Source of the DNA: Candidatus Levyibacteriota bacterium
GTDB lineage: Bacteria > Patescibacteriota > Microgenomatia > Levybacterales > UBA12049
Assembly (NCBI GenBank): GCA_052034235.1
Contig: JBPOIT010000007.1
Coordinates: 22,234 to 86,233 of the forward strand
Direction of reading: 5' to 3'
Length of the DNA: 64,000 nucleotides
Below, one piece after another: positions 31,368 to 53,746 of the stretch; position 1 is the stretch's first letter; each line of letters opens with the position of its first letter. The notes under the pieces were generated by a model. That model had not been told where the DNA came from. It made no database searches and saw only the letters and a list, made by a program, of their open reading frames with translations. Made by a program: the position numbers and the translations under genes.

Positions 31368-31368
31368 T

Positions 31369-31958: not shown

Positions 31959-32103
31959 TCTTTTTTTGATAGCTTTATTGAGAACTCATATATCTTTCTA
32001 ATCCCTCTAGTCATAAAAAGAAGACCATCTACAAATGCTGGAAGAAAGATCAGGCGAATACTTTTTCCGATTAACTTTTTTGAATTTTCCAAAGGATTTT
32101 GCA

Positions 32104-32140
32104 TTTTATATAAGATCGAGATCATTCCTCAATACAATTT
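32104..32140 (+). promoter_or_regulatory. conserved late intergenic motif (copy 5, variant, before tape measure gene)
   Basis: TTTTATATAAG-N14-TCAATACAATTT. Confidence 0.4.
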
Positions 32141-32180
32141 GCTAGTAGTGTGTCGGGTTTAGACATACTCGTCAAGGTAT

Positions 32181-34073: not shown

Positions 34074-34900
34074 TAAGTTCACTAAACATTCGATCAACGA
34101 CATTTAATACTGGAAGTAATTTCTTTATTACTGAACTTCCTGGTCTTGAAATGCCTCCGATGCGAGTTGTTAATTATAACTTAGCAGGTGAGCATTTTGG
34201 ATTGTATGTTTCTGCGTTTTACGGGAAAAGAAGATTCTCTATCAAAGGATGGGTTGTCGGTAGTTCTCAGTCTGATTTTCAAACACAAAGAGATCAGTTG
34301 CAAAGAGATTTAGATATAACAAGTGGTGAGATTCCAATTAATATAACGCTTGTTAATGGAAGACAACTTACAATCAATGCAATTCTTATTGCGCTTGATT
34401 TTTCTCCGAAGCCTGGAGAATTAACAGCAACACAATTTAACGCTTCTTTTGATGCCTCTTTCCCTTTTTTAGTTTCTCAAACTGAAAATTCACAAAATAT
34501 TAACCTGGCAACCGGTGGAGGAGGAAAAGTACCACCGGATACCATGCCGATGGCACTTGCACCTGATTCAGGTGGAGCTAACTTTATCATCAATAATGGT
34601 AATGCTCCTTACTATCCTTTTGCTCGAATAACCGGTCCTGTTTTAAATCCATCACTCCGAAATAATACTTCTGGAAAGGTTGTTAGATTTGCAGTGAATC
34701 TAGCTGCAGGTGAATATATAGACATTGATTTCAAAAGAAAGACCATTTTTGATAATCAAGGAAGGAATCAGTATTCCACAAAATCTGGTGATTGGTGGTT
34801 TCTGCAGCCTGGTACTTCAGAGATTCGTTTTCTGGCCGACTCCTATGATGCTTCAGCAGTCGCAAATATTAAGTTTAGAGATAGTTTCTTAGGAATATAG
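34070..34900 (+). CDS. distal tail protein (putative)
   Basis: 276-aa ORF overlapping the TMP stop by 4 nt; synteny. Confidence 0.4.
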   Translation: MISSLNIRSTTFNTGSNFFITELPGLEMPPMRVVNYNLAGEHFGLYVSAFYGKRRFSIKGWVVGSSQSDFQTQRDQLQRDLDITSGEIPINITLVNGRQLTINAILIALDFSPKPGELTATQFNASFDASFPFLVSQTENSQNINLATGGGGKVPPDTMPMALAPDSGGANFIINNGNAPYYPFARITGPVLNPSLRNNTSGKVVRFAVNLAAGEYIDIDFKRKTIFDNQGRNQYSTKSGDWWFLQPGTSEIRFLADSYDASAVANIKFRDSFLGI

Positions 34901-34901
34901 T

Positions 34902-35936
34902 ATGGGACTTTACGAATTTCTTATTAAAGATAAAAGTGGAAATGTAATTGCCTCTTTGGATTCAGCAAAAGAGAGATCTTTTGAAGTTTATTTGAACAAG
35001 TCAGGTGCTGCAGGCTTTACAATTTCACCAACAGATCCAAAAGTTACTCAAGATTTACTGTTGTTAGGCAATAAAGAGCTTTACATTTATCGTGCAGGAA
35101 CGCTTGTTTGGGGAGGAGAATTAGGTTATAGAAAAACCGATGTTGCAGATGGTCGCGAAGGAATCATGGTTACTGCAAAAGGTTTTATTGATTTACTAAG
35201 CAAAAAAATAATAGGGAGTGCTGCGACTCCTAAGCTCTACACCAATACTGATGCTGGACAAATTGCCTGGGACATTATTAATACAGTTCAAACCGGCACA
35301 AATGCTTCTTTTGGAATTACTGCAGGGAGTATTCCAGCCTCTGTTAATAGAGATCGAACATATGAATTTAAAAATGTTAAAGATGCTATTGAAGGTTTGT
35401 CTTCACTCAATATTAATAATGGGTTTGATTTTGAGATTGATGCTAACAAGCAGTTTTCAGTTTTCTATCCGCGAAAAGGATTAGATAAATCTGATCTTGT
35501 TTTTGAATATGGTAAAAACATTCTTTCTTTTTCGGAAACCCTGGATGCAACAGATATGGCGAATGAGATATTGGTTTTAGGTTCAGGAAATGGTTCTGAG
35601 ATGATTACCTCTGTTCGCGACTCAAACGCTACTACTCAGTCTCAATACAAAGTAAGACAAAAAGTAATCTCTTTTAAAGACGTTATAGAAACCGCAACGT
35701 TAAACGACAATGGAGATAAGGAGCTTTCACTACGACAGGTTCAGCAACAAATTATTTCACTGAAAACAAAAGGAAATCTTGAACCATTTTATGGATCGTA
35801 TGTTGTGGGAGATTCAGTAAGAGTAAAGATTAAGTACGGAATTATATCGATTGATTCGCTTTTTAGAATCTATGGAATAAAAGTAAAAATTTCCGATGAT
35901 GACGATGAAGATATAGAGTTAGTATTCAATCCTTAA
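34902..35936 (+). CDS. tail-associated/baseplate protein (putative)
   Basis: 344-aa ORF after the distal tail protein; synteny. Confidence 0.4.
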   Translation: MGLYEFLIKDKSGNVIASLDSAKERSFEVYLNKSGAAGFTISPTDPKVTQDLLLLGNKELYIYRAGTLVWGGELGYRKTDVADGREGIMVTAKGFIDLLSKKIIGSAATPKLYTNTDAGQIAWDIINTVQTGTNASFGITAGSIPASVNRDRTYEFKNVKDAIEGLSSLNINNGFDFEIDANKQFSVFYPRKGLDKSDLVFEYGKNILSFSETLDATDMANEILVLGSGNGSEMITSVRDSNATTQSQYKVRQKVISFKDVIETATLNDNGDKELSLRQVQQQIISLKTKGNLEPFYGSYVVGDSVRVKIKYGIISIDSLFRIYGIKVKISDDDDEDIELVFNP

Positions 35937-37492: not shown

Positions 37493-38662
37493 ATGAACTT
37501 TATTGGATTTGGTAACGGAAAAGATGGGGACTTAGTAGTTTCCTCTGCAAATACCATTATAAACAGCTACACAAGCCTTTCTGCCTCATATAGCGCAGGC
37601 GATAAGGTTTTTAATGTTGCAGATGCCACAAATTTTGCAGTTGGTGACGCAATTATTATTCATCAGTCGAGAGGTACGGGATTTGGTAATACTCAGAAAA
37701 ATAGAATTGAAGGGAAATCCGGAAATCAGCTTACTGTTAGCATTCCTTTTGATTATGGCTATGGAGATGACGGAGGAAACAGGCAGGCTCAAATTATTCG
37801 CTGCCCGGAATATAGTTCTGTAAAGATTAATAATACTGCTTCTATAGCGCCAACTGCTTGGAATGGGGATATTGGTGGAATTATTGCTTATTCATGTAAT
37901 GGGAAAACGACTGTTGATGGTTTCTTCAATTTGAAAGGAAAGGGTTATCGAGGTGGTCTTGGTGCAAATGATGATGCCGGAAGAATTCCTGCTTACTATG
38001 GCGAATCTGGTACTGGTCCCTCTGCGCAAGGACCAGGTGGAATTGATGGAACAGGTGCAGCAAATGGAGCCGGTGGAGGTGCAGGTGGCTCACGATCTGA
38101 TAACGGAGCAGGAGGAGGCGGTGGAGGTCATGCAAACGCAGGATCTAATGGCTTTACTGCTGGCTCAAATCCAAATCCTGGACAAGGTGGATCTTCTGTG
38201 GGTGATGCTGCATTTTCTAGTGCTCACATGGGAGCTGGTGGCGGTGGCGGTGGAATTGATGATTCTACTTATGGTGGACAGGGAGGAGATGGGGCAGGTC
38301 TTTTGTTTGCGGATTCTTATGAGTTTGTAATCAATAACAGCACTGGATATATCGATATGGATGGTACGAATGGTACTGGTCATGGAGATTCAGGAGGCGG
38401 TGGTGGTGGCGCTTCTGCAGGTGGAGCGTTTATCAGAGCTGTAAAAGGTGATATTGGCACTGATCGTATTTATGCAAGGGGAGGAACGGGTGGTCCGGCC
38501 GGTCATGCCTTTGCAGACGGAGGAGATGGTGGTCCTGGAAGTAAAGGAAGAGCAAGAGTTGAAGCCTGTACTCTTTCTGGATCACTCGGCTCATCATTTG
38601 CAGACTATTCATCAGTAGTAGGTGGGAAGGAATGGTGCGGAACCGGCACTGTAATGATGTAA
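37493..38662 (+). CDS. glycine-rich tail fibre-like protein
   Basis: 389 aa with long GGxGG tracts (GAGGGAGGSRSDNGAGGGGGGHANAG; GAGGGGGGIDDSTYGGQGGDGAG). Confidence 0.4.
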   Translation: MNFIGFGNGKDGDLVVSSANTIINSYTSLSASYSAGDKVFNVADATNFAVGDAIIIHQSRGTGFGNTQKNRIEGKSGNQLTVSIPFDYGYGDDGGNRQAQIIRCPEYSSVKINNTASIAPTAWNGDIGGIIAYSCNGKTTVDGFFNLKGKGYRGGLGANDDAGRIPAYYGESGTGPSAQGPGGIDGTGAANGAGGGAGGSRSDNGAGGGGGGHANAGSNGFTAGSNPNPGQGGSSVGDAAFSSAHMGAGGGGGGIDDSTYGGQGGDGAGLLFADSYEFVINNSTGYIDMDGTNGTGHGDSGGGGGGASAGGAFIRAVKGDIGTDRIYARGGTGGPAGHAFADGGDGGPGSKGRARVEACTLSGSLGSSFADYSSVVGGKEWCGTGTVMM

Positions 38663-39025: not shown

Positions 39026-39060
39026 ATGTATAAGGATTAGACCTCATCTCAATATCATTG
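39026..39060 (+). promoter_or_regulatory. conserved late intergenic motif (copy 7, before lysin)
   Basis: ATGTATAAG-N14-TCAATATCATTG, followed by GGTAGG and the ATG. Confidence 0.5.
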
Positions 39061-39066
39061 GGTAGG

Positions 39067-40098
39067 ATGAGAAACTACCCAAAAATCTATTCACAGCGCG
39101 ATCCTAAATGGGCTTCTCAAAGACTAGGAACAGTCAATGGGTCAACCATTGGCCAATATGGTTGTTATTTGACTTGTGATGCCATGACTGCAGGTTATTT
39201 TCATCAAGAAATAACCCCAAATGCTCTAGATGACATCTTCACCAATAAAAAGTACTACGTAAGCGGAAATTTACTCACTGATGACGCATTAACAAAGGTA
39301 TTTCCTGAAATTGTCTACCAAAGGACGTATTCCTATAAGGACGTCCCAGCTGATTTAAATTTACTCAGACAGCTTGCTCAAGACGACACACTAGCAATCA
39401 TTCTATGTATAGACTTCGATCACGATCCAAATGATGGAATTCAGACTCATTTTGTATGTGTTCAATCATATGAAGGAAATACTCTCAAAATTTATGATCC
39501 TTGGTATGGAACTGAAGATGACTTTGCACTCCACTATGGTAATAACCCAGGACTCACGATTCAAAAAGTTGTGGTTTATAAAGGTAATCCGGTTAATGGA
39601 ACCGTTGCTGTAGATGCAGCCGTTTTTCCCCAACTTGTCGATAAAGCCACAAAATATGATGCCTTTCATGCTGCAGGTTATACGACTGTAGATGATGTCA
39701 TAAAGAAAGTAGGTGACCTAACCAATGCCAATACTCAGTTTCAGCAAGATATTCAAAAGCTTCAAGGTCAAATTTCTGATATGGCGACTGCGATTCAAAA
39801 AGTTAAGGATGAAGATTTACAGGCAGTGGACGACTCCTTAAAAGCGCAGCATGAACGAGATAGTGCAGTTTCAGACTTAAATTTTGCAAAGAAACTTCTT
39901 GGTTTAGATCCTCAAGCAACTCCGGATGATATGGATAAAGCAGTTAGTACTTTGAAAGACAAGAATAAGGAGTTAGAGAAAGAAATTAAAGAACAAACTA
40001 AGCCTCAAGCAGAAATTACAGATCCAGATGTTAAAGCTGCATTTAGTTTAATAACTTTCTTGAAAAAGATATTCGGAAAAGGAGGTGATACTCAGTGA
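39067..40098 (+). CDS. putative endolysin: peptidase C39-like/CHAP-like cysteine peptidase with C-terminal coiled-coil domain
   Basis: YSQRDPKWASQRLG...TIGQYGCYLTCDAMTAGYF matches the Peptidase_C39_2-type Cys active-site region. Followed by a holin-like gene. Confidence 0.5.
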   Translation: MRNYPKIYSQRDPKWASQRLGTVNGSTIGQYGCYLTCDAMTAGYFHQEITPNALDDIFTNKKYYVSGNLLTDDALTKVFPEIVYQRTYSYKDVPADLNLLRQLAQDDTLAIILCIDFDHDPNDGIQTHFVCVQSYEGNTLKIYDPWYGTEDDFALHYGNNPGLTIQKVVVYKGNPVNGTVAVDAAVFPQLVDKATKYDAFHAAGYTTVDDVIKKVGDLTNANTQFQQDIQKLQGQISDMATAIQKVKDEDLQAVDDSLKAQHERDSAVSDLNFAKKLLGLDPQATPDDMDKAVSTLKDKNKELEKEIKEQTKPQAEITDPDVKAAFSLITFLKKIFGKGGDTQ

Positions 40099-40373
40099 AT
40101 GACTTAATTGGATTGGTTTTACCACCGGTTATTGATCTTATAAATCATAAAGTATCAAATTCAGCAGCAAAAGTTCTCCTCTCTTTAGCAATTTCACTTA
40201 TTGTTGGTGCATTATTGAATCTTGATAAGCTTAATGTCAAAGACGCAGGAGATGTTTTACAGGCTGGACTAGTGGTTTTCGGATCAGCTCAGGTAACTTA
40301 TCAGCTTTATTGGAAAAAGTCTTTAGATAGGCAACAGATGGTCTCAAAATTGCAAGGAAAAATTTCTAGTTGA
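40095..40373 (+). CDS. putative holin
   Basis: 92 aa with two hydrophobic segments; overlaps the lysin stop by 4 nt. Confidence 0.4.
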   Translation: MNDLIGLVLPPVIDLINHKVSNSAAKVLLSLAISLIVGALLNLDKLNVKDAGDVLQAGLVVFGSAQVTYQLYWKKSLDRQQMVSKLQGKISS

Positions 40374-40632
40374 AGAGTATAATTGCTAGAAGAAGAACTA
40401 TAAATAAAATTGTTCCTACTACCCATATTGTACTCTTTTTGGAGCCTTTTCTTACATCGACAATTATTGGATAATTGAATGGTTGTTTATCTTCTTTTGT
40501 AGTAAATCTCATCATAATTAATTCTATATCATTTTAGGATTGTTTTCTTTTGTGTATTCGTCTGTAATTTGATCCTATATGCGCTATAATAATAGTGTTA
40601 ATAACCTTATGGGCGAAGTAGGTGATAATTCT

Positions 40633-42837
40633 ATGACTGTAAGAGTTGAAGGAGCTGGTATCAGTGATCATCCTGGGGTAGAGCATTCCGCCCCTGTTTT
40701 TCGTGCTCTTAGAAGAGACCAAGATAGACAAGCTGAAATACTTGGTGGTTTTTCTCCGGACCAACAACGAGATATAAGATATAAACAAAAAATACTCACT
40801 TCACTCGCTTCTTTTATAGGAAAGGATTTTAGCATCCCCGTTAAACTGAATGAGCCAGGACAAGGCTGGCATTGGAACTTCCAAGACAACGAAATCAAAG
40901 TAGACCCACAAGATTTAGTAGAAAAGCCACTGGATTATTTAAGATTTGTTACTTCTCATGAAGGTACTCATAGAAGAATATCCAGAGCAGGCGATATTCC
41001 TCAGGAGGTTTGGAGACAACCTGGATTTTCTTTTATGGCAAATGCTATTGAAGATCCAAGAGTAAATAACTTTCTAGCTGATGCATATCCTAAGTCCAGG
41101 GAACAAATGAAGCTTGCCTATGAAATGGATGCTCAATTTGAAGCTCAAGCTAAGAAAGATGCAAAAGATCAGTTAGGATTTCAGCCAAGATTTGTAACAG
41201 CTGGCTTTGAATATATAAAGCAGTGGTTTAGAAGCACACAAGGTCAACCTGTAGAGCTAACTGACGACTTAGCTCCTGAAGTAAGAGAAGTTGTAAAGAA
41301 AACCTTGGAGTCTGCAAGAGATGCATGGCTCAGATACCCGTCAAAGCAAGAAGCAGATCAAGGCGAGGGAATAATAAAAAGATACTCACAGGTGTCTTAC
41401 GAAATTCAAAGAGATGAAGTATGGCCAGAATTTAAGAAGTTGGTAGATCAAGACATGCAAGACCAAGAAACGCAAGAGTTAATCCAACAAATGATGCAAG
41501 GGCAATCCGGTGAGGGTGAAGGCGAAGGACAAAGTGGTCAAGGTATGCCGCAAGACCTAAAAGATAAATTGACACCAGAGCAACAGGGAGAATTAGAGCA
41601 AGCAATGCAACAGGCAGCACAAAAAGGGCAACCTCAGCCTGGCGAGGGACAACCTCAAGCTGGAGATGGTCAGCCAGGGCAAGGAAAAAGAACCGCTGTT
41701 GACTTAGATTCTTTATCACCTGAATTAAGACAAAAATTAAAAGAGCATATTGATAGCAAACCCCAACCCACGCAACAGCAGTTAGAAGAAATGGCTAGGC
41801 AAGCACTTAAAGAATTAGAGGATATGATAAATGAACAATTGCAAGGTAAGTTATCGGATAATCCGGATAAAAAAGCGGAGAGAGAAGCAGCACAAGCTCA
41901 AGCAAAACCTGCAGGAGAAGCTGCTCAGGGTGATAAAAAACCAACTGAAGAAGGAGAGCCTAGCGATAAGCCCGCCACTCCATCTGACTATGAAGGATCA
42001 GATGATTTCAGAAAATTTAAAGACCAATTAGAGCAGGTCATGCAAAAAGACGAAAGCGTATATGAGCAAAACAGAAGAGAAGTTTTACCTGTTATCGATG
42101 CTCTGGAGGGTGATTTAAGAGAGTTGTTCGTGGCACGAAGAGCCAATAAGTGGCACAGTGGTTTCAGAACGGGTAAAAGGATAGATATTAAGAAAAGAAT
42201 GCAGGAGAAAGCCTTGGGTGTCTCTCCTATTGAAAGTAAAGCTTGGCAAAAAAGAGAGGTTCCTCAGGAAAAAGATTATGCAATTACTCTTTTAGTTGAT
42301 CTTTCTGGTTCAATGAGAGGACAAAAGATTTCTGAAACCTTTAAAGGTGCGGTTGCTCTAGCCGAAGTATTAAATAGATTATCGATAAACACGGAAATAT
42401 TAGGATTTAATGACCGACTTTATGAATATCAGGCATATGGACAAGACATGTCGCAAGAAATTAGAGATCGAATGGGAACAATGCCACGGGAGGTTAACAC
42501 CGAAAGAGCTTCATATAATGACGATGGGTGGGCTTTAGAAGAAGCCTCTGAAAGATTAGCCAGACAAAAAGCAACCGAAAAATTCTTATTTGTGTTATCT
42601 GATGGTGTACCAGAGCCATCATCTGCGCACTCTGGTCCCAGGTATGAGTTAGGAGCTGCAGTTAGAAGGATTATGGAAGGATCAGATCAAAAATTAATTG
42701 GTTTAGGAATTGGTCAAGGAACTGAGCATGTCAGTAGATTTTACCCCAATAGTATTGCTAATATAAATGTAGGAGAAATGCCAGAAAAGCTGGCAGATGT
42801 AATTCGAGAAGCAATTGCTAATTACGATACCTTTTAG
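40633..42837 (+). CDS. DUF2201-like protein: N-terminal HExxH metallopeptidase-like domain + Q/G/E-rich linker + C-terminal von Willebrand A (VWA) domain; partner of MoxR-type ATPase
   Basis: HEGTHRR (HExxH) near the N-terminus; VWA MIDAS DxSxS (LLVDLSGSMRGQK) and VLSDG near the C-terminus. AGGTGA RBS before ATG 40633; the track start 40579 is further upstream. Confidence 0.6.
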   Translation: MTVRVEGAGISDHPGVEHSAPVFRALRRDQDRQAEILGGFSPDQQRDIRYKQKILTSLASFIGKDFSIPVKLNEPGQGWHWNFQDNEIKVDPQDLVEKPLDYLRFVTSHEGTHRRISRAGDIPQEVWRQPGFSFMANAIEDPRVNNFLADAYPKSREQMKLAYEMDAQFEAQAKKDAKDQLGFQPRFVTAGFEYIKQWFRSTQGQPVELTDDLAPEVREVVKKTLESARDAWLRYPSKQEADQGEGIIKRYSQVSYEIQRDEVWPEFKKLVDQDMQDQETQELIQQMMQGQSGEGEGEGQSGQGMPQDLKDKLTPEQQGELEQAMQQAAQKGQPQPGEGQPQAGDGQPGQGKRTAVDLDSLSPELRQKLKEHIDSKPQPTQQQLEEMARQALKELEDMINEQLQGKLSDNPDKKAEREAAQAQAKPAGEAAQGDKKPTEEGEPSDKPATPSDYEGSDDFRKFKDQLEQVMQKDESVYEQNRREVLPVIDALEGDLRELFVARRANKWHSGFRTGKRIDIKKRMQEKALGVSPIESKAWQKREVPQEKDYAITLLVDLSGSMRGQKISETFKGAVALAEVLNRLSINTEILGFNDRLYEYQAYGQDMSQEIRDRMGTMPREVNTERASYNDDGWALEEASERLARQKATEKFLFVLSDGVPEPSSAHSGPRYELGAAVRRIMEGSDQKLIGLGIGQGTEHVSRFYPNSIANINVGEMPEKLADVIREAIANYDTF

Positions 42838-42848
42838 TAAGATAAAAA

Positions 42849-43265
42849 TTGATGATTATGAATAGCAAATTTACAGACTTTCTAAAACACTCACTCTCTC
42901 AAAAAGAAATTTCTCTGGCTATTGCAAAAGACGATCAGGAGCTAAATAGCTTCCAAGAGACTCTTCATCAAGCTGGATTTAAGAAGGCTTATGATATTCC
43001 CGAAATCTTAAATGACATGAAGGAAAACTCAAAGGTCTACTACTTTATTGATGAGAAATTCCCCAAAGCGCTGTATGACTTAATAATTCAATACCCCACT
43101 GGTCAAGTAGAGACTTTTGATGTTCGAACAATGAAATCTACAGTGGTTACGCCGTCTTATAGCAAATCAGCTATAATACTGCTTGTCACAAAGGATACTT
43201 TAGCTTATTTTCAGACTAAAGGCTATTCAATATTAGAAAAAGTTGGAATAGCATATCAAAGTTAA
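42849..43265 (+). CDS. hypothetical protein between VWA and AAA genes
   Basis: 138-aa ORF, tightly spaced with both neighbours. Confidence 0.3.
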   Translation: MMIMNSKFTDFLKHSLSQKEISLAIAKDDQELNSFQETLHQAGFKKAYDIPEILNDMKENSKVYYFIDEKFPKALYDLIIQYPTGQVETFDVRTMKSTVVTPSYSKSAIILLVTKDTLAYFQTKGYSILEKVGIAYQS

Positions 43266-43268
43266 AAT

Positions 43269-45269
43269 ATGGAAGATCCGAATGTAGACTCAGCTATGAT
43301 AGAAAGACAAGGACCGATTGACCGAAAGACTGCTCCTATTGTGGAAACTCCTGATACAGTTTCCTATTTGGGCGTGCGTTTAGAGAAGTCATCGGCTCCT
43401 CCTGGATTGTACGTTCCCAGAAAAGAACAATATGCTGATTATATCAATGATAGATTTTCCCTAGACCTTCAAAAACAACTAGCAGTAAGCTTTCTTCAGG
43501 GTGATCCAATTCTTGTGGAAGGTGGTACTAGTATCGGTAAAACAACTACTGTAAGAAAGATGGCAGCAGATCTTGGGTGGGAAGTTCACTACGCCAACCT
43601 TAATGGAGCAACGGATGTAGAAGATTTAATGGGTAGATACATCCCTAATCCAGATAAACATGCTCCTGAAGATCCTGAATATGTATTTGCTGATGGAAAA
43701 GTCACCAGTGGTCTAAGACAAGAAGATGGGAAAATTAAAGTTATTATTTTGGATGAGTTTAATGCTGCAGCTCCTAATATTTTAATTCGTTTACATGAGG
43801 TATTGGATGCTGTAGGCAGAGGGGAAAATGTTGTTTTATCAGAGGATGCTTCAGAAGTTGTTCCTGTTGATAAAGCTAAGACCAAAGTAGTAGCACTCAT
43901 GAATCCTCCTGGAAAAGGTTATTTTGGAAGAGAGCCGCTAGATCCGGCACAGCTAAGACGTTGGGTATACACAAAAGCCCCTACAGATTTACCAGACGAA
44001 ACGTTCAGCCATGCTACAGACGCTTTATTTACGCTGGCTCCTCAAATGCAGGATGTGCCGGAGGATGCATATTTATTAAATCGAGACTTGGCCTTGCTAC
44101 CAGAGCAATTACAAGAAATACCAGGTATCCACGAAGTACTGGCTAAATATAAGGAATTTCACAAAGGAGCAAAATTGTTGGTCAGAGAAAGAAGAGTTGC
44201 TGCAGATCAACCGCAACCATTTACTTACGATGACAGAATGGAACCTAGAAGAGTGAGAGATTTCGTTTTGTCTTTTTATAATGGAGATGTTAATGACACC
44301 TTCCAAACAGCTCTGCGTTATTACTATGAAAATAAATTAGATTCAGCAGTAGATAAAGCTGCTATGGATGAATTAGTCAGAACAGTCGAATATGTAGAGC
44401 CAATACAAAATGTTTCTTCTCAAAGGCGAGGACTAGAAAGGGACGCTGCTGTCAGACCTGGAGAACCATTAGTAGATATTGTTAGGTCTACCGCTACGGA
44501 GACATCTGAGCTTGGAAGAAGGGAAACTGAAGCATGGCAAAGAGTTTTGGGTACAAGAGTTGAAGTAAAGCCATTGCCTGAATCTGTTACACCAGAAGTA
44601 AGAAGAAATCTTGAACGACTTGGGTTTGATTTACGGTATGTTCCCAAAATTGAGCTTGCTGATCGTGATGCTATTAGGCGTAAAGGTGTTGACCAGTACT
44701 TAAAAGATTTACAACGTCAATATCCAAATTGGAAGCCATATGAATCTCTTGGTGATAGAGAGCAATCCGACCATAGAATTCCTCGAAACTTGAGGGAATG
44801 GTATTGGGAGTTAGTAAAAGATGGAAAAGTGGATATGCCTGTGCTTCCTGGACAGTGGTTAGCTGTTGAAACAGTCGATAAGCCATCATATGGGAATAAA
44901 TATGCAAGAACTGCTTTTGCTGAAAAGTTAGGATTTAGAGATGATAGGTTTAATGTCTCTTGGAATGATGCAAATAACGCTATAGAAAGGCAAAAGAGAG
45001 CAGTTTTAGGTGAAGTCGGGCTTACTGGAAGGTCTGCAGATATTCGATTACTAGAGACTCCTGAATGGAATTTATTAGGAAATCGTGAGGGTTGGGGTGC
45101 AACTGATACTTATGAGTGGACAAATACAGAATATCGTGAGTCCGGTGGTCCGCGCCGTCTCGTGGTTGGTGGCTCCGACTACGGTGGTGCGGCGAACGTC
45201 TACTGGGCTCATCCTGACTACTCGTACGACAACGTGGGGTTCCGTGCTGCGGTAGTCGTGGGTTCTTGA
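43269..45269 (+). CDS. DGR target: AAA_5 (MoxR/dynein-related) ATPase with C-terminal FGE-sulfatase/C-type-lectin-fold variable domain
   Basis: Walker A ILVEGGTSIGKTTT, Walker B VIILDEFNAA; no signal peptide. The C-terminal WTNTEYRESGGPRRLVVGGSDYGGAANVYWAHPDYSYDNVGFRAAVV matches the FGE-sulfatase fold signature (RGGSW...GFRcA). The last 122 nt form the VR of the downstream DGR. Confidence 0.75.
   Translation: MEDPNVDSAMIERQGPIDRKTAPIVETPDTVSYLGVRLEKSSAPPGLYVPRKEQYADYINDRFSLDLQKQLAVSFLQGDPILVEGGTSIGKTTTVRKMAADLGWEVHYANLNGATDVEDLMGRYIPNPDKHAPEDPEYVFADGKVTSGLRQEDGKIKVIILDEFNAAAPNILIRLHEVLDAVGRGENVVLSEDASEVVPVDKAKTKVVALMNPPGKGYFGREPLDPAQLRRWVYTKAPTDLPDETFSHATDALFTLAPQMQDVPEDAYLLNRDLALLPEQLQEIPGIHEVLAKYKEFHKGAKLLVRERRVAADQPQPFTYDDRMEPRRVRDFVLSFYNGDVNDTFQTALRYYYENKLDSAVDKAAMDELVRTVEYVEPIQNVSSQRRGLERDAAVRPGEPLVDIVRSTATETSELGRRETEAWQRVLGTRVEVKPLPESVTPEVRRNLERLGFDLRYVPKIELADRDAIRRKGVDQYLKDLQRQYPNWKPYESLGDREQSDHRIPRNLREWYWELVKDGKVDMPVLPGQWLAVETVDKPSYGNKYARTAFAEKLGFRDDRFNVSWNDANNAIERQKRAVLGEVGLTGRSADIRLLETPEWNLLGNREGWGATDTYEWTNTEYRESGGPRRLVVGGSDYGGAANVYWAHPDYSYDNVGFRAAVVVGS
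45135..45256 (+). repeat. DGR variable repeat (VR) at the 3' end of the target gene
   Basis: 122 nt aligning with TR at 45723-45844. The 10 differences (G/A, CG/AA, GG/AA, T/A x4, C/A) all fall on TR adenines. The identical GC-rich 3' end (ggggttccgtgctgcggtagt) is IMH-like. Confidence 0.9.
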
Positions 45270-45722: not shown

Positions 45723-45844
45723 CGTGAGTCCGGTGATCCGAACCGTCTCGTGGTTGGTAACTCCGACAACGGTGGTGCGGCGAACGTCAACTGGGATCAT
45801 CCTGACAACTCGAACGACAACGTGGGGTTCCGTGCTGCGGTAGT
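45723..45844 (+). repeat. DGR template repeat (TR)
   Basis: Adenine-rich at the variable codons (AAC/AAT). Differs from VR only at adenines. Lies in a 380-nt untranslated spacer upstream of avd/RT. The overlapping 144-aa ORF 45579-46013 is rejected. Confidence 0.9.
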
Positions 45845-45894
45845 ATTATCTTTAAGTGAAATACGGCCTGCTCTATCAAGGGTAGGCCTTATTT

Positions 45895-46272
45895 TTAGGT
45901 GGAAGATGACCTTATCCATCCACCTAACATTTTACCAATTTCTTGAAGGGAGGATTCTAATTCAAGATATTTTTTATTATCAAGTATTTTTAGATCTTTA
46001 CATAACCTTATGAGTACTTTTGTTAAATCGAGCTTTGTACTTGCTCTTTGCAAGACTGGTATTTTTTCTTGTTTAGGTAGGCTCGCAGCGATTGTAACTG
46101 ATTCTAGAAAATCGAGAAGAGCATTTTCGCATCTCTGGCCAAGTGTATATTTATCTTTTTTAGGAAAGTTAACAAGGTAACCATAAAAGGTTTTGTATGT
46201 TTCGTAAGTTTTTTGAAAAATGGGAAAATCTAAAGTTTTATTAATTGATTGAAAATCATGAGAGTCTGGCAT
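45895..46272 (-). CDS. avd: accessory variability determinant (Avd; four-helix-bundle / 23S rRNA-IVS family)
   Basis: 125 aa. FPKKDKYTLGQRCENALLDF... and C-terminal EIGKMLGGWIRSS match the four-helix-bundle family signature (FPKxEKYxLxsQlrRA...EIGKMLNGLIKSL). Head-to-head with the RT gene, overlapping it by 24 nt. Confidence 0.55.
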   Translation of the reverse strand: MPDSHDFQSINKTLDFPIFQKTYETYKTFYGYLVNFPKKDKYTLGQRCENALLDFLESVTIAASLPKQEKIPVLQRASTKLDLTKVLIRLCKDLKILDNKKYLELESSLQEIGKMLGGWIRSSST

Positions 46273-47295
46273 AACATTTACTCAAATCTTATCACATTGG
46301 AGAGCGTTTTTACAGCGTGGGATGAGTTTATTCAAGGCAAAAAGAAAAAAGATGACGTAATGGCTTTTAGAAGGTTTCTCGAGGATAATTTATTCGAACT
46401 TCATCAAAGCTTAAAAGCTAAGACATACCAACATGGTGGGTACAAATCTTTTTATATTAGAGATCCAAAAGTGCGCCATATTTCAAAAGCTTGTGTCAGA
46501 GATAGAGTCGTCCATCATCTCGTCAGTAATGTCTTAGAAAGAATTTTTGACCCTACATTTTATGTGCATTCCTATTCCTGCCGTAAAAACAAAGGAACTC
46601 ATAAAGCAATCGAATCATTTGTTAAGCTTGCCAGAAAAGCTAGCAAAAATAATACGTCACCTCTTTTTGTTCTTAAATGTGACGTAAAGAAGTTTTTTGC
46701 CAGCGTCGATCATGAAATATTATATAGACTACTGGATAGGAGAATTTTTGATGAAGATTTTTTGTGGTTATTGAGAGAAATAATTAATAGCTTTAGTATA
46801 GATGCTCAGGAAAGGGGTATGCCTATAGGGAATCTCACTTCTCAATTTTTCGCTAATATTTACCTGGATCCTTTTGACCGTTTCATTAAGCATGATCTTA
46901 AAATTGAATATTATATTCGCTATGCTGATGACTTCATAATCTTGTCAGACAATAAGGAATATTTAGAGAAGTTAATTGTCAATCTTGAACACTTTTTGGA
47001 ATTTGAGCTAAAGCTATTCCTTCACCCTCACAAAATATCAATTCGAGATTATTATTTAGGAATAGATTTTTTAGGCTATATCGTTTTTCCTAATTTTGTC
47101 TTACCCAGAACCAAAACGAAGAAGCGGCTTTTTAGGAAGATTCATAAAAAGGTGGAACTTTATAAGATGAGTAAAATTACAGCAGAATCCCTTAGCCAGT
47201 CAATTCAATCCTACCTTGGTTATCTTACTCATGCCAATGCGTACAAACTCTCTCAACAGCTGAAGAATCAAATTATATTTTGGCTAAACGACTAA
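46249..47295 (+). CDS. DGR-type reverse transcriptase
   Basis: RT motifs including YADDFII (motif 5) and the DGR-specific MPIGNLTSQFFANIYL (I/LGxxxSQ in place of QGxxxSP). 348 aa with no maturase or endonuclease domains. Confidence 0.9.
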   Translation: MKIMRVWHNIYSNLITLESVFTAWDEFIQGKKKKDDVMAFRRFLEDNLFELHQSLKAKTYQHGGYKSFYIRDPKVRHISKACVRDRVVHHLVSNVLERIFDPTFYVHSYSCRKNKGTHKAIESFVKLARKASKNNTSPLFVLKCDVKKFFASVDHEILYRLLDRRIFDEDFLWLLREIINSFSIDAQERGMPIGNLTSQFFANIYLDPFDRFIKHDLKIEYYIRYADDFIILSDNKEYLEKLIVNLEHFLEFELKLFLHPHKISIRDYYLGIDFLGYIVFPNFVLPRTKTKKRLFRKIHKKVELYKMSKITAESLSQSIQSYLGYLTHANAYKLSQQLKNQIIFWLND

Positions 47296-47507
47296 AACAT
47301 AAATAACTCTTTTGGCTCTACCTTCAGAGCCTTGGAGAGCTTATATATGTTGTCCAGGGAGACATTTTGCTCTCCTCTCTCCACCGCTCCAATATAGGTG
47401 CGGTGAATACTGGCCTTAAACCCCAATGCTTCCTGAGAAAGCTTTGCGGCTTTTCTAACCTCCCTTAGTCTGTTTCCGAATTTTTTTCGGATATTAGTTT
47501 GTCCCAT
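47292..47507 (-). CDS. XRE-family HTH transcriptional regulator
   Basis: 71 aa; LSQEALGFKASIHRTYIGAVERGEQNVSLDNIYKLSKAL is a classic Cro/C1-type HTH. Confidence 0.6.
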   Translation of the reverse strand: MGQTNIRKKFGNRLREVRKAAKLSQEALGFKASIHRTYIGAVERGEQNVSLDNIYKLSKALKVEPKELFMF

Positions 47508-47585: not shown

Positions 47586-47930
47586 TTGAAAATGAAAAGA
47601 AATTTAATTATCGAACAATATGAATTCGGGACAATTGAGGGAATAAATGATGAAGCTTTACTCAAAGCGATTAATAAGGCTCAATCAAGGTTTTTTACCA
47701 AGCAGGATGGGTTTTTATATGCGGAAGTACTTAAAGAAGGTGACAAGTGGATAAAACTTACTTACTGGAACAGCCGAGATGAAGCTATGGGGGCACAAAA
47801 AGCATTTTTAGATCATTCTAGCTGCTTACCTTTTGTTCAGATGATTTCTCCTGGTAATGTGAAGATATTGTACCTAGAACGAATTTTGAGATATAAGAGC
47901 AAAGCTTTTGGTGAAAGGAGGTTTAGTTAA
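47586..47930 (+). CDS. hypothetical protein (possibly ABM/dimeric alpha-beta-barrel-like)
   Basis: 114-aa ORF divergent from the XRE gene. Confidence 0.25.
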   Translation: MKMKRNLIIEQYEFGTIEGINDEALLKAINKAQSRFFTKQDGFLYAEVLKEGDKWIKLTYWNSRDEAMGAQKAFLDHSSCLPFVQMISPGNVKILYLERILRYKSKAFGERRFS

Positions 47931-48114: not shown

Positions 48115-50388
48115 ATGAAATTATCAGACAATGAAAAACGAGACATTATTAAGTATCTTGAATCTGGGAAACCCCTTCCAGATAAATACAGATTCCTCCT
48201 CTTCGATGATGACCATGAAGTAGAACTGGTTTGGAATGGTAAAACAAACGAAATCTCCAATATTGTACTACCTTTTCAGACGATAGAACATATTGATGAA
48301 CCAAGAAGCGATGAATCAATCCGGATGCAGAAATCCCTTTTTGATATGTCTGGCCGTCAGATTGAAGGTTGGACAAATAAGCTCATTTGGGGCGATAACA
48401 AACTAATTCTGTCCTCACTCAAAAATGGCCCTCTTAGAAAAGAAATAGAAGCTCAAGGCGGTATAAAACTTATTTATATTGATCCTCCTTTTGATGTAGG
48501 CGCAGACTTTTCTATTGATGTTCAAATTGGTGAGGAAGAATTTATAAAGAAACCATCAGTAATTGAAGAAGTTGCATTTAGAGATACATGGGGTAAAGGT
48601 GTAGATAGTTTTATTGCAATGATTTATGAACGATTGCAATTAATGCACGATCTTTTAGCTGAAGATGGAAGTATTTATATTCACTGCGATGGTCGCGTGA
48701 GCGCATATCTTAAGCTTTGTCTTGATGAAATATTTGGAGCAGACAATAAAATGGCAGAGATAATTTGGAAAAGAAGTTCTGCTCATAATGATAGTAATTC
48801 TTATGGCACGATACATGACACAATTCATTTTTATACTAAAACAGATTTGAATATTTGGAATCCCACCTACGTTGAATACGACCAAGATTATATTGACCAA
48901 TATTATAGATATAAAGATCCTGATGGAAGAAAATGGTTGTCTCGCGACTGTAGTGCTCCTGGAGGGCGAGGGCCGAGATATGAATGGAATGGACATATTC
49001 GAAACTGGCGATACACCAAAGTTAAGATGCAAGAGCTTCATGATGCTGGGAAATTATTTTATACATCAAATGGTATACCTCGCTTTAAGCAGTATATGGA
49101 TGAGATGCCAGGTGTGCCCTCACAAAGTTTATGGATAGACAAAAGTGTTCAAGCAATTAATTCGTGGCATCAAGAAAATGAAGCTTACCCCACACAAAAA
49201 CCAGAAGGACTTTTAGAGCGAATTATAAAAGCGAGTAGTAATGAAAATGATATTGTGGCTGACTTTTTTGTTGGATCGGGAACAACATTGGCTGTCGCAG
49301 AAAAATTAGGTAGAAAATGGATAGGTTCTGATTTAGGAAGATTTTCAATGCACACTACCCGCAAAAGAATGATTAAAGTTCAAAGAGAGCTTAAGAAAGC
49401 AGGTAAAGATTTCAGAGCTTTTGAGATCCTAAATTTAGGAAAATATGAACGGGAACAGTTTATTGGGAAAAACGACAATCTAAGAGAAGAAGACCGACAA
49501 TTGCAGCAGCAAAAGAAAGAACAAGAATTTATAAAATTGATTCTATCAGCTTACAAAGCAGAGGCTGTTGATTCATTTTTAACTATGGTTGGTAAAAAAA
49601 GAGATCGTCTTGTAGCAATCGGACCAATAAATTTTCCTGTTACTGCAGAATTCTTACATCAAGTCGTTACAGAGTGTATAGAGAAGAATATCACTAAAGT
49701 AGATGTGCTTGGGTTTGATTGGGAAATGGGTCTTGAAGTAGATCAATTTAAGAATCAAGGAGTTGATCTTCAGCTTAGAGTAATTCCAAGAGAAGTATTT
49801 GATAAGCGAGCAGTTGAAAAAGGACAAGTTAAATTTTATGAGGTAGCTTTTATTGAAGTTAAGCCCATTATAAAAAAGAATACTATCGCGGTTCAGTTAA
49901 TGGATTTTAGCGTCTTTTATAACCAAGATGATTCAGGTGAAATCGAAGAAAAATTAAAATCAGGTGGTTCTAAAGTTGTTGTCGAGAACGGTCAAGTGAT
50001 TAAGCTTAGTAAAGATAAAGGATCTGAGATTGTTAATCGAGAAGTATTAACAACTAAATGGACAGATTGGGTTGATTATTGGGCTGTTGATTTTAATTTT
50101 GAAAGTAAGAAAGAGTTCATTAGGAAAGCTAAAGATTTCGATATATCTCAACCAAAACTTGATGGTACCGAAGATCCAACACAAACAAAATTCCCTGAGT
50201 ATGAAGAATTATGGACTGGTAGTTATATTTTTGAAAATGAATGGCAATCATTTAGATCTCAAAAAGATAGAAATTTGGAATTAACTACAGTATTTAAAGA
50301 AGTCTCAAGAGGAACTTTAAAGATTGCAGTTAAAGTCGTTGATATTTTTGGTAACGATACAACAAAGGTGATTGAAGTTACAGTTTAA
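48115..50388 (+). CDS. mod: Type III restriction-modification system methyltransferase (Mod; N6-adenine/N4-cytosine, beta class)
   Basis: Motif IV LIYIDPPFD precedes motif I FFVGSGTTLAVAEKLGRKWIGSD (beta-class order). 757 aa, followed directly by a DEAH helicase-nuclease. Confidence 0.75.
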   Translation: MKLSDNEKRDIIKYLESGKPLPDKYRFLLFDDDHEVELVWNGKTNEISNIVLPFQTIEHIDEPRSDESIRMQKSLFDMSGRQIEGWTNKLIWGDNKLILSSLKNGPLRKEIEAQGGIKLIYIDPPFDVGADFSIDVQIGEEEFIKKPSVIEEVAFRDTWGKGVDSFIAMIYERLQLMHDLLAEDGSIYIHCDGRVSAYLKLCLDEIFGADNKMAEIIWKRSSAHNDSNSYGTIHDTIHFYTKTDLNIWNPTYVEYDQDYIDQYYRYKDPDGRKWLSRDCSAPGGRGPRYEWNGHIRNWRYTKVKMQELHDAGKLFYTSNGIPRFKQYMDEMPGVPSQSLWIDKSVQAINSWHQENEAYPTQKPEGLLERIIKASSNENDIVADFFVGSGTTLAVAEKLGRKWIGSDLGRFSMHTTRKRMIKVQRELKKAGKDFRAFEILNLGKYEREQFIGKNDNLREEDRQLQQQKKEQEFIKLILSAYKAEAVDSFLTMVGKKRDRLVAIGPINFPVTAEFLHQVVTECIEKNITKVDVLGFDWEMGLEVDQFKNQGVDLQLRVIPREVFDKRAVEKGQVKFYEVAFIEVKPIIKKNTIAVQLMDFSVFYNQDDSGEIEEKLKSGGSKVVVENGQVIKLSKDKGSEIVNREVLTTKWTDWVDYWAVDFNFESKKEFIRKAKDFDISQPKLDGTEDPTQTKFPEYEELWTGSYIFENEWQSFRSQKDRNLELTTVFKEVSRGTLKIAVKVVDIFGNDTTKVIEVTV

Positions 50389-53078: not shown

Positions 53079-53746
53079 TGATAAAACTATCACGATCAAA
53101 AATTGAGTTACTTTTCGACTGCCCTCGTTGCTTTTGGTTTTATGCCGGAAAAAGCATTGCCCGCCCGTTTGGTGCTCCTTACACAATAAATAATGCGGTA
53201 GATTTTATCCTTAAAAAGGAATTTGATGTCCATAGAGCCAATGGAACTGCTCACTATCTAATTGTAAGGGATGGAATTGATGCAATTCCATATATGCACG
53301 AAGATATTGATAAATGGAGACACAACTTTACAGGTATTCAATTTCACCACCAAGAGACAGATTTCCTTGTTTTTGGAGCAGTTGATGATATATGGGTCGA
53401 TTCCCAGGGAAATCTCATTGTGGTGGATTACAAAGCCTCTGGGGCTAAAGAAGGAGAGCTTTACGATAGTTATAAAAGACAGATGGAAATTTACCAATGG
53501 ATACTAAGACAAAATGGATTTAAGGTGCAAAATCGTGGGTATTTCGTATATTGCCGAGTAAATAAAGAGAATGGGTTTCCAGAGGGTAAACTTAGCTTCG
53601 ATATTAAACTTCAGCCATATGATGGTGATGATAGTTGGGTTACAAATAAGATCTTCGAAGCAAAAAAGATATTGGATGGAAAAATGCCTGATAGCTCCGA
53701 GGCGTGCACATATTGCAAGTATGTTAAATCTCTTCAGATCGATTAA
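53078..53746 (+). CDS. Cas4-like PD-(D/E)XK nuclease with N- and C-terminal Cys pairs
   Basis: CPRCFW near the N-terminus and CTYCKY at the C-terminus flank VDD...VVDYKAS (D...D-x-K). Start overlaps the res stop. Confidence 0.5.
   Translation: MIKLSRSKIELLFDCPRCFWFYAGKSIARPFGAPYTINNAVDFILKKEFDVHRANGTAHYLIVRDGIDAIPYMHEDIDKWRHNFTGIQFHHQETDFLVFGAVDDIWVDSQGNLIVVDYKASGAKEGELYDSYKRQMEIYQWILRQNGFKVQNRGYFVYCRVNKENGFPEGKLSFDIKLQPYDGDDSWVTNKIFEAKKILDGKMPDSSEACTYCKYVKSLQID

Follow-up and report, generated by a model that had tools for sequence, protein, structure and literature searches.

The locus and its genes

The locus lies in a 64,000-nucleotide stretch of contig JBPOIT010000007.1 from a Candidatus Levyibacteriota bacterium (the window), and comprises genes for a VWA protein with an HExxH motif, a small protein and a MoxR-type AAA_5 ATPase, followed by the template repeat (TR), accessory gene and reverse transcriptase (RT) of a DGR (Table 1). 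The three ORFs reported by a first-pass annotation are all present in the sequence. The VWA, small-protein and ATPase genes form a tight operon, with tightly packed genes and only 3 nt ahead of the ATPase gene.

Table 1. Positions of genes, motifs and DGR elements in the window
Feature	Position	Strand	Evidence or remark
HExxH + linker + VWA (MIDAS) protein	40579..42837	+	CobT_C 4.8e-16, VWA 4.7e-5
HEGTH (HExxH) motif, N-terminal domain of VWA protein	40957..40971	+	Invariant, 30 homologues
MIDAS DxSxS motif, VWA domain	42298..42312	+	D556, S558, S560 invariant
Conserved small protein	42849..43265	+	138-aa ORF between VWA and ATPase genes
DGR target, MoxR-type AAA_5 ATPase with C-terminal CLec-fold module	43269..45269	+	666 aa; AAA_5 1e-12
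AAA_5 core, residues 81-231	43509..43961	+	Walker A 43521-43544, Walker B 43740-43757
C-terminal module, residues 412-666: helical N-extension + C-type-lectin/FGE fold	44502..45266	+	
Variable repeat (VR), target residues 623-662	45135..45256	+	122-nt repeat, 92% identical to TR
Template repeat (TR)	45723..45844	+	24 adenines
GC-rich hairpin + T-run directly 3' of TR	45865..45897	+	Terminator-like; 10 pairs, 6 G-C
bAvd accessory protein	45895..46272	-	PF22296 bAvd 9.3e-19
DGR reverse transcriptase	46249..47295	+	RVT_1 7e-25
114-aa ORF just downstream of RT	47586..47930	+	Homologues after RT in 9 non-redundant loci

The ORF of the VWA protein has 752 aa when counted from 40579, and the protein probably starts with the ATG at 40633, giving 734 aa (this Met is residue 1 below). 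An N-terminal HExxH domain is followed by a long acidic/Gln-rich linker and a C-terminal VWA domain, the latter matching CobT_C and VWA in a Pfam profile search. The nearest solved sequences in a PDB sequence search are CobT, Midasin and NorD, CobT being the best match of the VWA domain. Homologues (n=480) are mostly 690-740 aa long and some carry CPR (Candidate Phyla Radiation) source names. Among 30 of them H109, E110 and H113 of the HExxH motif are invariant, as are E140-D141 downstream of it and S656-D657-G658 in addition to the DxSxS residues, with the MIDAS DxSxS...D motif intact. Hence, the HExxH and VWA parts of the initial description hold, and its label 'DUF2201-like' is unsupported, since neither DUF2201 nor DUF2201_N matches any of the 30 members at E<=1. 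The HExxH domain has no match in Pfam or by PDB sequence search and none to a known peptidase family, and because of the latter its proteolytic activity is a guess.

The ORF between the VWA and ATPase genes represents a real conserved family, with a mean column identity of 49% over 26 aligned homologues, and lies in this same place in 61 of the 71 non-redundant loci. In annotations its homologues have 135 aa, the length that results if translation begins at ATG 42858, and those with names are all called 'hypothetical protein'. No match to the small protein was obtained in Pfam, PDB, PADLOC, NCBIfam or PHROG.

The third protein, a soluble AAA_5 ATPase of MoxR type, ends in a hypervariable C-terminal CLec fold. 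Its AAA_5 match exceeds the Pfam cut-off, and the Walker A (G85-T92) and Walker B (D162, E163) motifs are conserved in 39 homologues, the invariant residues being G86, T87, G90, K91, T92, D162 and E163, in agreement with the N-terminal ATPase proposed at first. Homologues number 422, with 339 representatives at E<=1e-30. The best structural matches of the ATPase are CbbQ2 (6l1q, 5.9e-13) and NorQ/NorQD (9qh4-9qhg). The full-length model (pLDDT 82) has two halves, between which residues 378-411 form a disordered linker. For the C-terminal half, structural evidence supports the predicted C-type-lectin fold, while the FGE-sulfatase family that was expected with it is undetected by Pfam. By a hydropathy heuristic (not SignalP), the three proteins lack any hydrophobic segment (maximal Kyte-Doolittle 19-residue mean of about 1.0) and have polar N-termini. 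A cytoplasmic location, also claimed earlier, is supported because hydrophobic segments are absent and such a machine needs ATP.

A complete DGR directed at the ATPase subunit

The DGR is complete, recently active and of the CPR type, and it has one target only, the ATPase subunit within a conserved MoxR-VWA machine of three genes, as had been suspected for this gene. VR and TR differ at 10 positions, all of them TR adenines; read in the target frame, 23 of the 24 adenines of TR occupy the first or second codon position, many of them as part of AAC codons, and 15 codons of VR are able to vary. Within the family, entropy amounts to 2.92 bits at the variable VR residues as compared to 1.43 in the rest of the domain, and near-identical alleles differ at 14 of 35 residues in the VR window versus only 3 of 614 outside it. 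Mismatches confined to adenines between VR and TR are seen again in 37 related loci. These data show that about 15 residues of the C-terminal module are recoded by adenine-specific mutagenic retrohoming.

The RT, whose start is probably ATG 46258, contains IGNLTSQ and YADD, the former fitting the DGR-type [I/L]GxxxSQ motif. The bAvd gene is inverted relative to target and RT, an arrangement shared by related loci. A passage of Wu et al. 2018 (PMC5758913) ascribes a B3 architecture, there named without definition, to 90% of CPR DGRs, and the inverted layout would, in our view, fit it. The 114-aa ORF downstream of the RT, which has no family match in Pfam, PADLOC, NCBIfam or PHROG, is a possible accessory gene of uncertain membership.

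Conservation, module swapping and genomic setting

Linkage of the VWA gene to the cassette is maintained across dozens of independent loci, counter to the unlinking that would have spoken against the first-pass annotation, and the collinear order of VWA, small-protein and ATPase genes is found in 56-61 of 71 non-redundant related loci. These loci come from CPR bacteria, one DPANN archaeon and three IMG/VR viral contigs. The N-terminal half of the ATPase bears at least seven types of C-terminus in other genomes, among them repeat arrays, an HTH and a second CLec type that has a DGR of its own, and the same CLec module also occurs in fusions with other AAA_5 ATPases and with a ClpB-like AAA_2 ATPase. 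Such a pattern of module swapping points to an unfoldase or remodeller equipped with a recruiting domain. In the widespread P0113 subgroup (>130 contigs), the triad with a CLec module lies in a core-genome context with no DGR within 10 kb, and therefore the machine does not need ongoing diversification.

In the window, the cassette belongs to the cargo of a siphovirus-type prophage, is co-oriented with its late genes and directly follows its lysis genes, with a type III R-M system, a Cas4-like nuclease and a PIN-TPR protein downstream, which confirms the prophage setting beside R-M and nuclease genes described initially. R-M genes are found again in the flanks of other loci, and HEPN_LA2681 adjoins the cassette in seven. 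Most related loci have housekeeping genes rather than defence islands in their flanks, and most non-redundant loci with long flanks are chromosomal without phage genes; some cassettes reside on prophages and others on islands with recombinases. None of the PADLOC models matches the cassette, apart from a weak match to mad8 at 4e-4.

Relation to known systems

The first-pass annotation regarded the combination as uncharacterised. This novelty claim was overstated, and as regards the target it was wrong, since AAA-CLec targets are already catalogued and DGR-diversified MoxR-vWA systems have been proposed before. According to the text of Dore et al. 2024 (PMC10907252) that cites Paul et al. 2017, AAA-CLec fusions are the architecture met most often among the DGR targets of CPR bacteria, and a suggestion made there is that their ATPase domain transduces signals sensed by the C-terminal region. 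Wu et al. 2018 list, among CPR targets, proteins with Midasin/AAA motifs (category g1 / UVR4 'Midasin'), leave open their CLec fold and state that virtually nothing was known of an association of CPR DGRs with phages. The locus is a member of this group without essential difference, sharing the N-terminal AAA/Midasin-type (AAA_5) ATPase, the C-terminal VR, CPR-type homologues, the order target, TR, inverted avd and RT, and the lack of membrane or secretion signals.

DGR-diversified sensors in MoxR-vWA conflict systems have been proposed by Kaur et al. 2020 (PMC7159879) and also by Dore et al. 2024. In these vWA-MoxR (VMAP) ternary systems, as here, a MoxR ATPase, a vWA protein and a third component are encoded in one operon, a DGR-diversified CLec/FGS domain is the proposed sensor or interactor for invader molecules, and action is predicted to be cytoplasmic. 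However, here it is the MoxR ATPase instead of the vWA protein that carries the variable CLec, the vWA domain lies at the C-terminus and is preceded by an HExxH domain and a long linker, the product of the third gene has about 135 aa and no VMAP match, effectors of the trypsin, caspase, TIR or EAD kind are absent, and the host is a CPR rather than a multicellular bacterium.

Among MoxR-VWA remodelling pairs, CbbQ and NorQ come closest to the fold of the ATPase, and NorD, one of the nearest solved sequences to the VWA protein, is likewise built from an N-terminal domain, a linker and a VWA domain. In contrast to NorQ-NorD, CbbQ-CbbO, CobS-CobT and phage CobS/CobT-like pairs, the cassette lacks a client gene (NOR, Rubisco or CobN) and has an additional hypervariable CLec on the ATPase and an HExxH domain on the VWA protein. 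With Mtd of Bordetella phage BPP-1 and TvpA of Treponema denticola the target shares the C-type-lectin/FGE fold, VR at the extreme C-terminus, an AAC-rich TR and adenine-specific mutagenesis; whereas Mtd serves as the receptor-binding protein of a tail fibre and TvpA is a lipoprotein at the surface, the fold is here joined to a cytoplasmic AAA+ motor. What appears undescribed is the fixed triad of HExxH-VWA protein, small protein and ATPase, the swappable C-terminal module and the carriage on two unrelated CPR prophage types. Relative to the literature consulted, the additions are the conserved partners (HExxH-VWA protein and small protein), the confirmation of the CLec fold by structure, module swapping and prophage carriage.

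Proposed function and alternatives

The cassette is proposed, with a probability of about one half and by analogy with NorQ-NorD, CbbQ-CbbO and CobS-CobT, to be an ATP-driven machine that would capture variable cytoplasmic ligands, probably in phage-host conflict. NorQ remodels the NorD linker by means of a VWA finger that enters the pore of the hexamer (PMC13036017). By the same principle, an ATPase hexamer would display six hypervariable lectin-fold domains and the VWA protein would dock on it, such that ATP hydrolysis might pull the acidic/Gln-rich linker and thereby position or activate the N-terminal zincin-like HExxH domain. The lectin-fold domain could hence serve as a reprogrammable module recruiting a substrate or ligand, which would most plausibly be a protein from an invading phage or other mobile element, to a machine for remodelling and perhaps proteolysis. 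The position in prophage cargo by R-M, nuclease and PIN-TPR genes fits a role in conflict between phage and host or between phages, for example in superinfection exclusion, and the earlier reading as an intracellular invader sensor is a plausible inference.

The prophage itself might be served by a CobS/CobT-like MoxR-VWA machine whose lectin-fold domain captures variable host proteins for host takeover or counter-defence, or else chaperones virion assembly, with the DGR allowing the phage to track host variation. The placement and orientation relative to lysis and late genes would suit such a role, and so would locus L006 and about seven related loci, in which the cassette lies between SU10-type portal and capsid genes, as well as its presence on the three viral contigs. 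In addition, CobS/CobT-like pairs are common in phages, the VWA protein matches phage families (phrog_1576, phage 'CobT'), and phrog_249 is also among the matches of the VWA and ATPase proteins. We nevertheless consider this unlikely, given the prevalence of chromosomal loci with housekeeping neighbours, a post-lysis position beside R-M and PIN-TPR genes that is typical of cargo benefiting the lysogen, and the lack of similarity between the cassette proteins and structural proteins.

A role in the interaction of CPR episymbionts with their hosts, with the variable protein exported or delivered by an unrecognised route and binding variable surface or cytoplasmic molecules of the host, is judged quite improbable, although it is what has been suggested for CPR/DPANN DGRs in general. 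DGRs are strongly enriched in CPR and DPANN organisms, from which the source-named homologues come, and reviews ascribe to the DGRs of these organisms a function in attaching cells to each other. However, an AAA+ ATPase requires cytoplasmic ATP, signal peptides, membrane segments and anchors are lacking by the hydropathy heuristic in the target and in its equally soluble partners, and CPR targets are typically without transmembrane domains (Roux et al. 2021).

Given the P0113 subgroup, the triad machine may have a housekeeping client. As an explanation of the present cassette, a housekeeping chaperone for the insertion of a metal or cofactor, related to CobS/CobT, NorQ/NorD or CbbQ/CbbO and with a lectin-fold domain that recognises a client enzyme, is nonetheless very improbable: the DGR-less triads, the annotation 'CobT' in some sources, the CobT, CbbQ and NorQ likeness and weak NCBIfam matches speak for it, but the latter score far under the equivalog cut-offs (CobT 41 vs 759 bits, CobS 21 vs 558), no CobN, NorB or Rubisco gene is seen in annotated neighbourhoods or among the top flank families, hypermutation of the domain for recognition is hard to reconcile with a client that is fixed, and the cassette is carried by prophages and recombinase-bearing islands.

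The DGR and its target operon

To judge from its sequence, the element in the window is a complete DGR with recent activity, and its target is the last gene of a tightly packed operon of three ORFs. VR and TR differ at 10 of 122 positions, and all 10 differences lie at TR adenines. As 23 of the 24 TR adenines fall on codon position 1 or 2 of the target frame, 15 residues (624-655), located at the C-terminus of a predicted C-type-lectin/FGE-fold (CLec) domain, can vary. The pair is adjoined by an Avd accessory protein and a DGR-type reverse transcriptase (RT), whose translation contains the IGNLTSQ and YADD motifs. Within the window this TR has a single VR, and no second VR or target was found. 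Between the TR and the inverted avd gene lies a GC-rich hairpin of 10 pairs followed by a T-run, which could act as a terminator for the TR RNA or give it structure in the inverted-avd architecture.

Among related loci, 37 contain a TR/VR pair with mismatches almost solely at TR adenines. In related assemblies, near-identical alleles show differences at 14 of 35 residues within the VR window as compared to 3 of 614 elsewhere, and family-wide entropy reaches 2.92 bits at the 15 adenine-coded residues versus 1.43 bits over the rest of the domain. This distribution of differences and of entropy thus provides indirect evidence that diversification in the target family is real and ongoing in nature. 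Most studied DGR targets act outside the cell. DGRs are the sole known system by which prokaryotes diversify a binding protein pre-emptively, in an antibody-like manner, and in the family described here the diversified domain would be part of a motor that is powered by ATP in the cytoplasm.

Coordinates of the DGR cassette and of the surrounding prophage features in the window
Feature	Position	Strand	Remarks
Prophage	~11500-63400		In a CPR-like chromosome; terminase 17713, portal 19107, capsid 22187, tail genes 30417-35936
C-5 cytosine DNA methylase	16176-17258	+	Inside prophage
Glycine-rich ORF	37493-38662	+	389 aa; past tail genes
Lysis genes	39058-40373		Prophage
Operon of three ORFs	40579-45269	+	Tightly packed
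VWA protein ORF	40579-42837	+	752 aa; start probably ATG at 40633
Small middle ORF	42849-43265	+	138 aa; homologues annotated at 135 aa
DGR target ORF	43269-45269	+	666 aa; starts 3 nt past end of the 138-aa ORF
VR	45135-45256	+	Last 40 codons of target gene; 122-nt direct repeat of TR
TR	45723-45844	+	Downstream of target gene
Hairpin with T-run	45865-45897	+	Directly 3' of TR
bAvd gene	45895-46272	-	bAvd 9.3e-19
RT	46249-47295	+	RVT_1 7e-25
Xre-type HTH gene	47292-47507	-	71 aa; 4-nt overlap with RT 3' end
114-aa ORF	47586-47930	+	Directly past RT
Type III R-M, Mod	48115-50388	+	Prophage cargo
Type III R-M, Res	50394-53078	+	Prophage cargo
Cas4-like PD-(D/E)xK nuclease	53078-53746	+	Prophage cargo, after Res
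TPR-PIN protein	53773-57702	+	1309 aa, many TPR repeats; PIN-TPR-GreABC type, 2.7e-30
Tyrosine integrase	62349-63371	-	Far end of prophage

The target protein

The N-terminal half of the target is predicted to be a MoxR-class AAA+ ATPase by profile, motifs and modelled fold alike. Residues 81-231 match the Pfam family AAA_5 (E 1e-12; 48.7 bits, cut-off 22), and across 39 sequences no variation occurs in Walker A (GxxxxGKT; G85-T92), Walker B (hhhhDE; D162, E163) or additional AAA+ positions. An AlphaFold2 model of the full-length protein, built with 39 homologues, has a pLDDT of 82 and contains two folded halves separated by a disordered linker (378-411). The best Foldseek matches of the N-terminal half, in the range of 6e-13 to 2e-10, are CbbQ2 (6l1q, 5.9e-13), NorQ (9qh4 and NorQD complexes) and the MoxR protein CHU_0153. 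The AAA_5/MoxR-like N-terminus proposed in the first-pass annotation was hence borne out.

The CLec/FGE fold proposed for the C-terminus is upheld by modelling but not by family profiles, since Pfam gave no match on the C-terminal 266 residues and a sequence-profile search of the module against the PDB returned chance synaptotagmin matches only (E 0.2). The fold is therefore established through structure prediction: modelled alone, the C-terminal half has a pLDDT of 95.8 and a pTM of 0.93, the model matches solely C-type-lectin/FGE-fold proteins, and Foldseek retrieves the same families. None of the three proteins of the operon contains a hydrophobic stretch (maximal 19-residue Kyte-Doolittle mean of about 1.0) and all have polar N-termini, in line with the earlier view of a cytoplasmic target without signal peptide; these features and the requirement for ATP speak for a cytoplasmic location. 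Cysteines are absent from all three proteins (752, 138 and 666 aa).

The partner proteins

The protein encoded by the first gene, numbered here from the Met at 40633, combines an N-terminal HExxH domain and a C-terminal VWA domain connected by a long acidic, Gln/Gly-rich segment. Its C-terminus matches CobT_C (4.8e-16) and VWA (4.7e-5) in Pfam, and among solved structures the VWA domain is nearest in sequence to CobT, the Midasin MIDAS domain and NorD. Across 30 aligned homologues, the MIDAS DxSxS motif (D556, S558, S560) and S656-D657-G658 are invariant, as are the HExxH residues (H109, E110, H113) with the downstream E140-D141, in agreement with the presence of both motifs noted initially. 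The proposed likeness to DUF2201, by contrast, could not be maintained: neither PF09967 nor PF13203 matches the window protein or 29 homologues at E<=1, and DUF2201_N and the VWA protein have just the bare HExxH motif in common. For the HExxH domain, none of the 30 members gives a Pfam match, and no PDB sequence resembles it.

The small middle protein represents a genuine conserved family with motifs including SQKEVSL and QYPTGQ.E.FD, for which searches of Pfam, PADLOC and NCBIfam gave no match and no relatives of known function were detectable. PADLOC likewise assigned the cassette to no defence system. Among PHROGs, the two large proteins match phage 'CobT', 'porphyrin biosynthesis' (CobS-like) and phrog_1576 (function unknown). 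An identity as the cobaltochelatase pair CobS/CobT was rejected because of both scores and context, as the NCBIfam models TIGR01651 (CobT) and TIGR01650 (CobS) give 41 bits against a cut-off of 759 and 21 bits against 558, respectively, and CobN is found neither in the annotated neighbourhoods nor among the top flank families.

Conservation of the triad and exchange of the C-terminus

A large protein database contains 422 homologues of the target, many of them full length with 55-80% identity, and the few that are named derive from Patescibacteria, Shapirobacteria and an Anstonellales (DPANN) archaeon. Named homologues overall further include Saccharibacteria, Parcubacteria, Gottesmanbacteria and Magasanikbacteria, and the triad is present in a Saccharibacteria MAG (L002). 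A profile search of 1.84 billion representatives yielded 339 matches at E<=1e-30. Megablast of the cassette against GenBank phages gave none. Together with the window, 98 loci collected from genomes, metagenomes and viral contigs form 71 non-redundant groups, in which the ATPase is present in 69, the small protein in 61, the VWA protein in 56, Avd in 28 and RT in 27. Wherever present, the VWA gene is collinear, and the groups without it are explained by contigs that end there. The gene neighbourhood, named as a check in the first-pass annotation, is conserved, and comparison of these loci identifies the HExxH-VWA protein, small protein and ATPase as a conserved linkage.

The ATPase half (residues 1-400) is 58-86% identical across loci and occurs with no fewer than seven kinds of C-terminal part. 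The CLec module of the window type accounts for 42 loci and a second CLec type, whose DGR is more distant, for 24; the other kinds comprise repeat arrays that reach 1117 aa, additional CLec variants that have DGRs, an HTH resembling sigma-70 region 4 and others of unknown type. The same helical and CLec module also exists as a stand-alone protein of 260-320 aa and as a fusion to more divergent AAA_5 ATPases and to a ClpB-like AAA_2 ATPase; such alternative forms were seen in the related proteins P0391, P0338, P0339 and P0366 and in two collected loci (L004, 9806-10771; L005, 4746-5624). This recurrence of the CLec module on different AAA+ remodellers fits a substrate-recruiting role.

One widespread subgroup, P0113 (L095-L098; more than 130 contigs), has the triad with its CLec module in a core-genome setting amid HisRS, HSP20 and SpoU genes. 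RhuM and VanY genes come after it, and RT, Avd and TR are all absent within 10 kb. This subgroup is a natural DGR-less control.

Genomic setting

The window begins with cell-division and cell-wall genes (Mur ligase, MraY, FtsW, MurG, FtsA and FtsZ), after which follows a siphovirus-type prophage with terminase, portal, protease, capsid, tail tube, tape measure, Dit and Tal genes. Beyond the lysis genes come the DGR cassette, the type III R-M system, the Cas4-like nuclease, the TPR-PIN protein and the tyrosine integrase. With phage structural and lysis genes upstream and R-M genes through to the integrase downstream, the cassette constitutes prophage cargo, and its initial placement next to R-M and nuclease genes holds. 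The PIN-TPR protein beside the R-M genes is predicted to belong to a conflict system.

In a different prophage lineage, comprising about seven groups that include three IMG/VR contigs, the cassette is located between SU10-type portal and capsid genes. Other copies occur in small islands that contain serine recombinases together with a HEPN_LA2681 gene; the commonest setting consists of ordinary chromosomal genes, with some R-M genes nearby. A strictly phage-borne element was rejected, because most loci with long flanks are chromosomal. The HEPN_LA2681 gene lies beside or near the VWA gene in seven non-redundant loci (for example L006, 988-2574, and L091, 6175-7431), both in the podovirus-like (SU10-type) prophage lineage and in the recombinase-bearing chromosomal island, which suggests either a linked RNase effector or a co-travelling module.

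Relation to known systems

According to Dore et al. 2024 (PMC10907252), who cite Paul et al. 2017, AAA-CLec fusions are the commonest type of DGR target in CPR bacteria, and CPR targets with P-loop or Midasin AAA motifs are listed by Wu et al. 2018 (PMC5758913). The window locus shares with this class (Paul et al. 2017; g1/UVR4 of Wu et al. 2018) a probable CPR/DPANN origin, an AAA/Midasin-type N-terminus, a C-terminal VR and an inverted avd, and it is a member of the class. The inverted-avd layout would fit B3 of Wu et al. 2018. The first-pass annotation had considered the combination uncharacterised; this does not hold for the target class, which these sources already catalogue. The triad and the exchange of modules appear to be undescribed. 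What the present analysis adds is the conserved triad, C-terminal module swapping, confirmation of the CLec fold by modelling and two unrelated CPR prophage types as carriers, the last a subject on which almost nothing had been available.

The ternary conflict systems of MoxR, vWA and VMAP components described by Kaur et al. 2020 (PMC7159879) resemble the present locus in that a MoxR ATPase and a vWA protein are encoded in one operon, and to this extent the earlier description as a vWA-MoxR three-gene conflict-type cassette stands. However, the third gene encodes the ~135-aa protein rather than a VMAP with a peptidase, cyclase or EAD N-terminus, and no VMAP-like gene occurs in the annotated neighbourhoods. 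Moreover, the DGR-diversified FGS domain resides on the vWA protein in the systems of Kaur et al., whereas here the CLec/FGS module is on the ATPase and the vWA protein bears an HExxH domain instead. Lacking a VMAP component and a vWA-borne effector, the locus falls outside the VMAP ternary systems, even though it would work like them.

Proposed function

By analogy with characterized MoxR-VWA pairs, the triad is proposed, with a probability of about one half, to be an ATP-driven machine that captures variable cytoplasmic ligands, probably in phage-host or phage-phage conflict. In NorQ-NorD (PMC13036017), a finger of the VWA domain reaches into the pore of the hexamer, and the linker of NorD is remodelled by the motor. 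Similarly, the target ATPase would form a hexamer that engages the VWA protein and spends ATP to remodel its long linker, and thereby its HExxH domain, and the role of the CLec module would be to bring in a variable ligand from the cytoplasm. The cargo position by R-M, nuclease, PIN and HEPN genes would point to conflict as the setting. A suggestion close to this capture-and-remodel model is made for CPR AAA-CLec targets by Dore et al. 2024.

A more far-reaching proposal, of fairly low probability, is that the triad may be a separate and so far uncharacterised kind of programmable AAA+ machine, in which the six reprogrammable lectin-fold domains of a hexamer capture arbitrary cytoplasmic proteins, for example of invading phages, and a VWA-tethered zincin receives these for remodelling or cleavage driven by ATP, with spread among ultra-small CPR/DPANN cells by phages and recombinase-bearing islands. 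If true, it would amount to an intracellular, diversifiable system for targeted degradation or an immune receptor system, and the presence of CLec on AAA_5 and ClpB-like clades would reflect a general principle of a 'variable adaptor on an unfoldase'.

Among the alternatives, a function that benefits the phage is an unlikely reading. More doubtful again is a role in the interaction of an episymbiont with its host, for a triad whose proteins all appear to be soluble. A housekeeping cofactor-insertion chaperone is the least credible reading and has very little probability.

If the capture-and-remodel model is true, it would provide a new principle of intracellular recognition and a compact scaffold for programmable protein targeting; if it is wrong, the locus remains a well-annotated example of a catalogued target class. 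Roux et al. 2021 (PMC8144416) noted a lack of transmembrane domains in CPR targets and left open whether these are truly non-membrane. For this question the triad offers a testable unit, consisting of a putative fixed machine with catalytic residues in Walker A/B, MIDAS and HExxH, a swappable recognition module and natural examples with and without a DGR.

Neighbouring genes

Several genes around the cassette were recorded in addition. The 114-aa ORF past the RT gives no match in Pfam, NCBIfam, PADLOC or PHROG, its position is kept in nine non-redundant related loci, and it may be an extra accessory gene of the DGR or of the cassette. The Xre-type HTH gene that abuts the RT is a possible regulator of the cargo region. 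The glycine-rich 389-aa ORF, which has no family match and is not a DGR target, may encode a prophage fibre or receptor-binding protein. Five further loci (L049, L050, L060, L069 and L085) have homologues of the C-5 cytosine methylase, which is encoded inside the prophage, in the vicinity of their triad.
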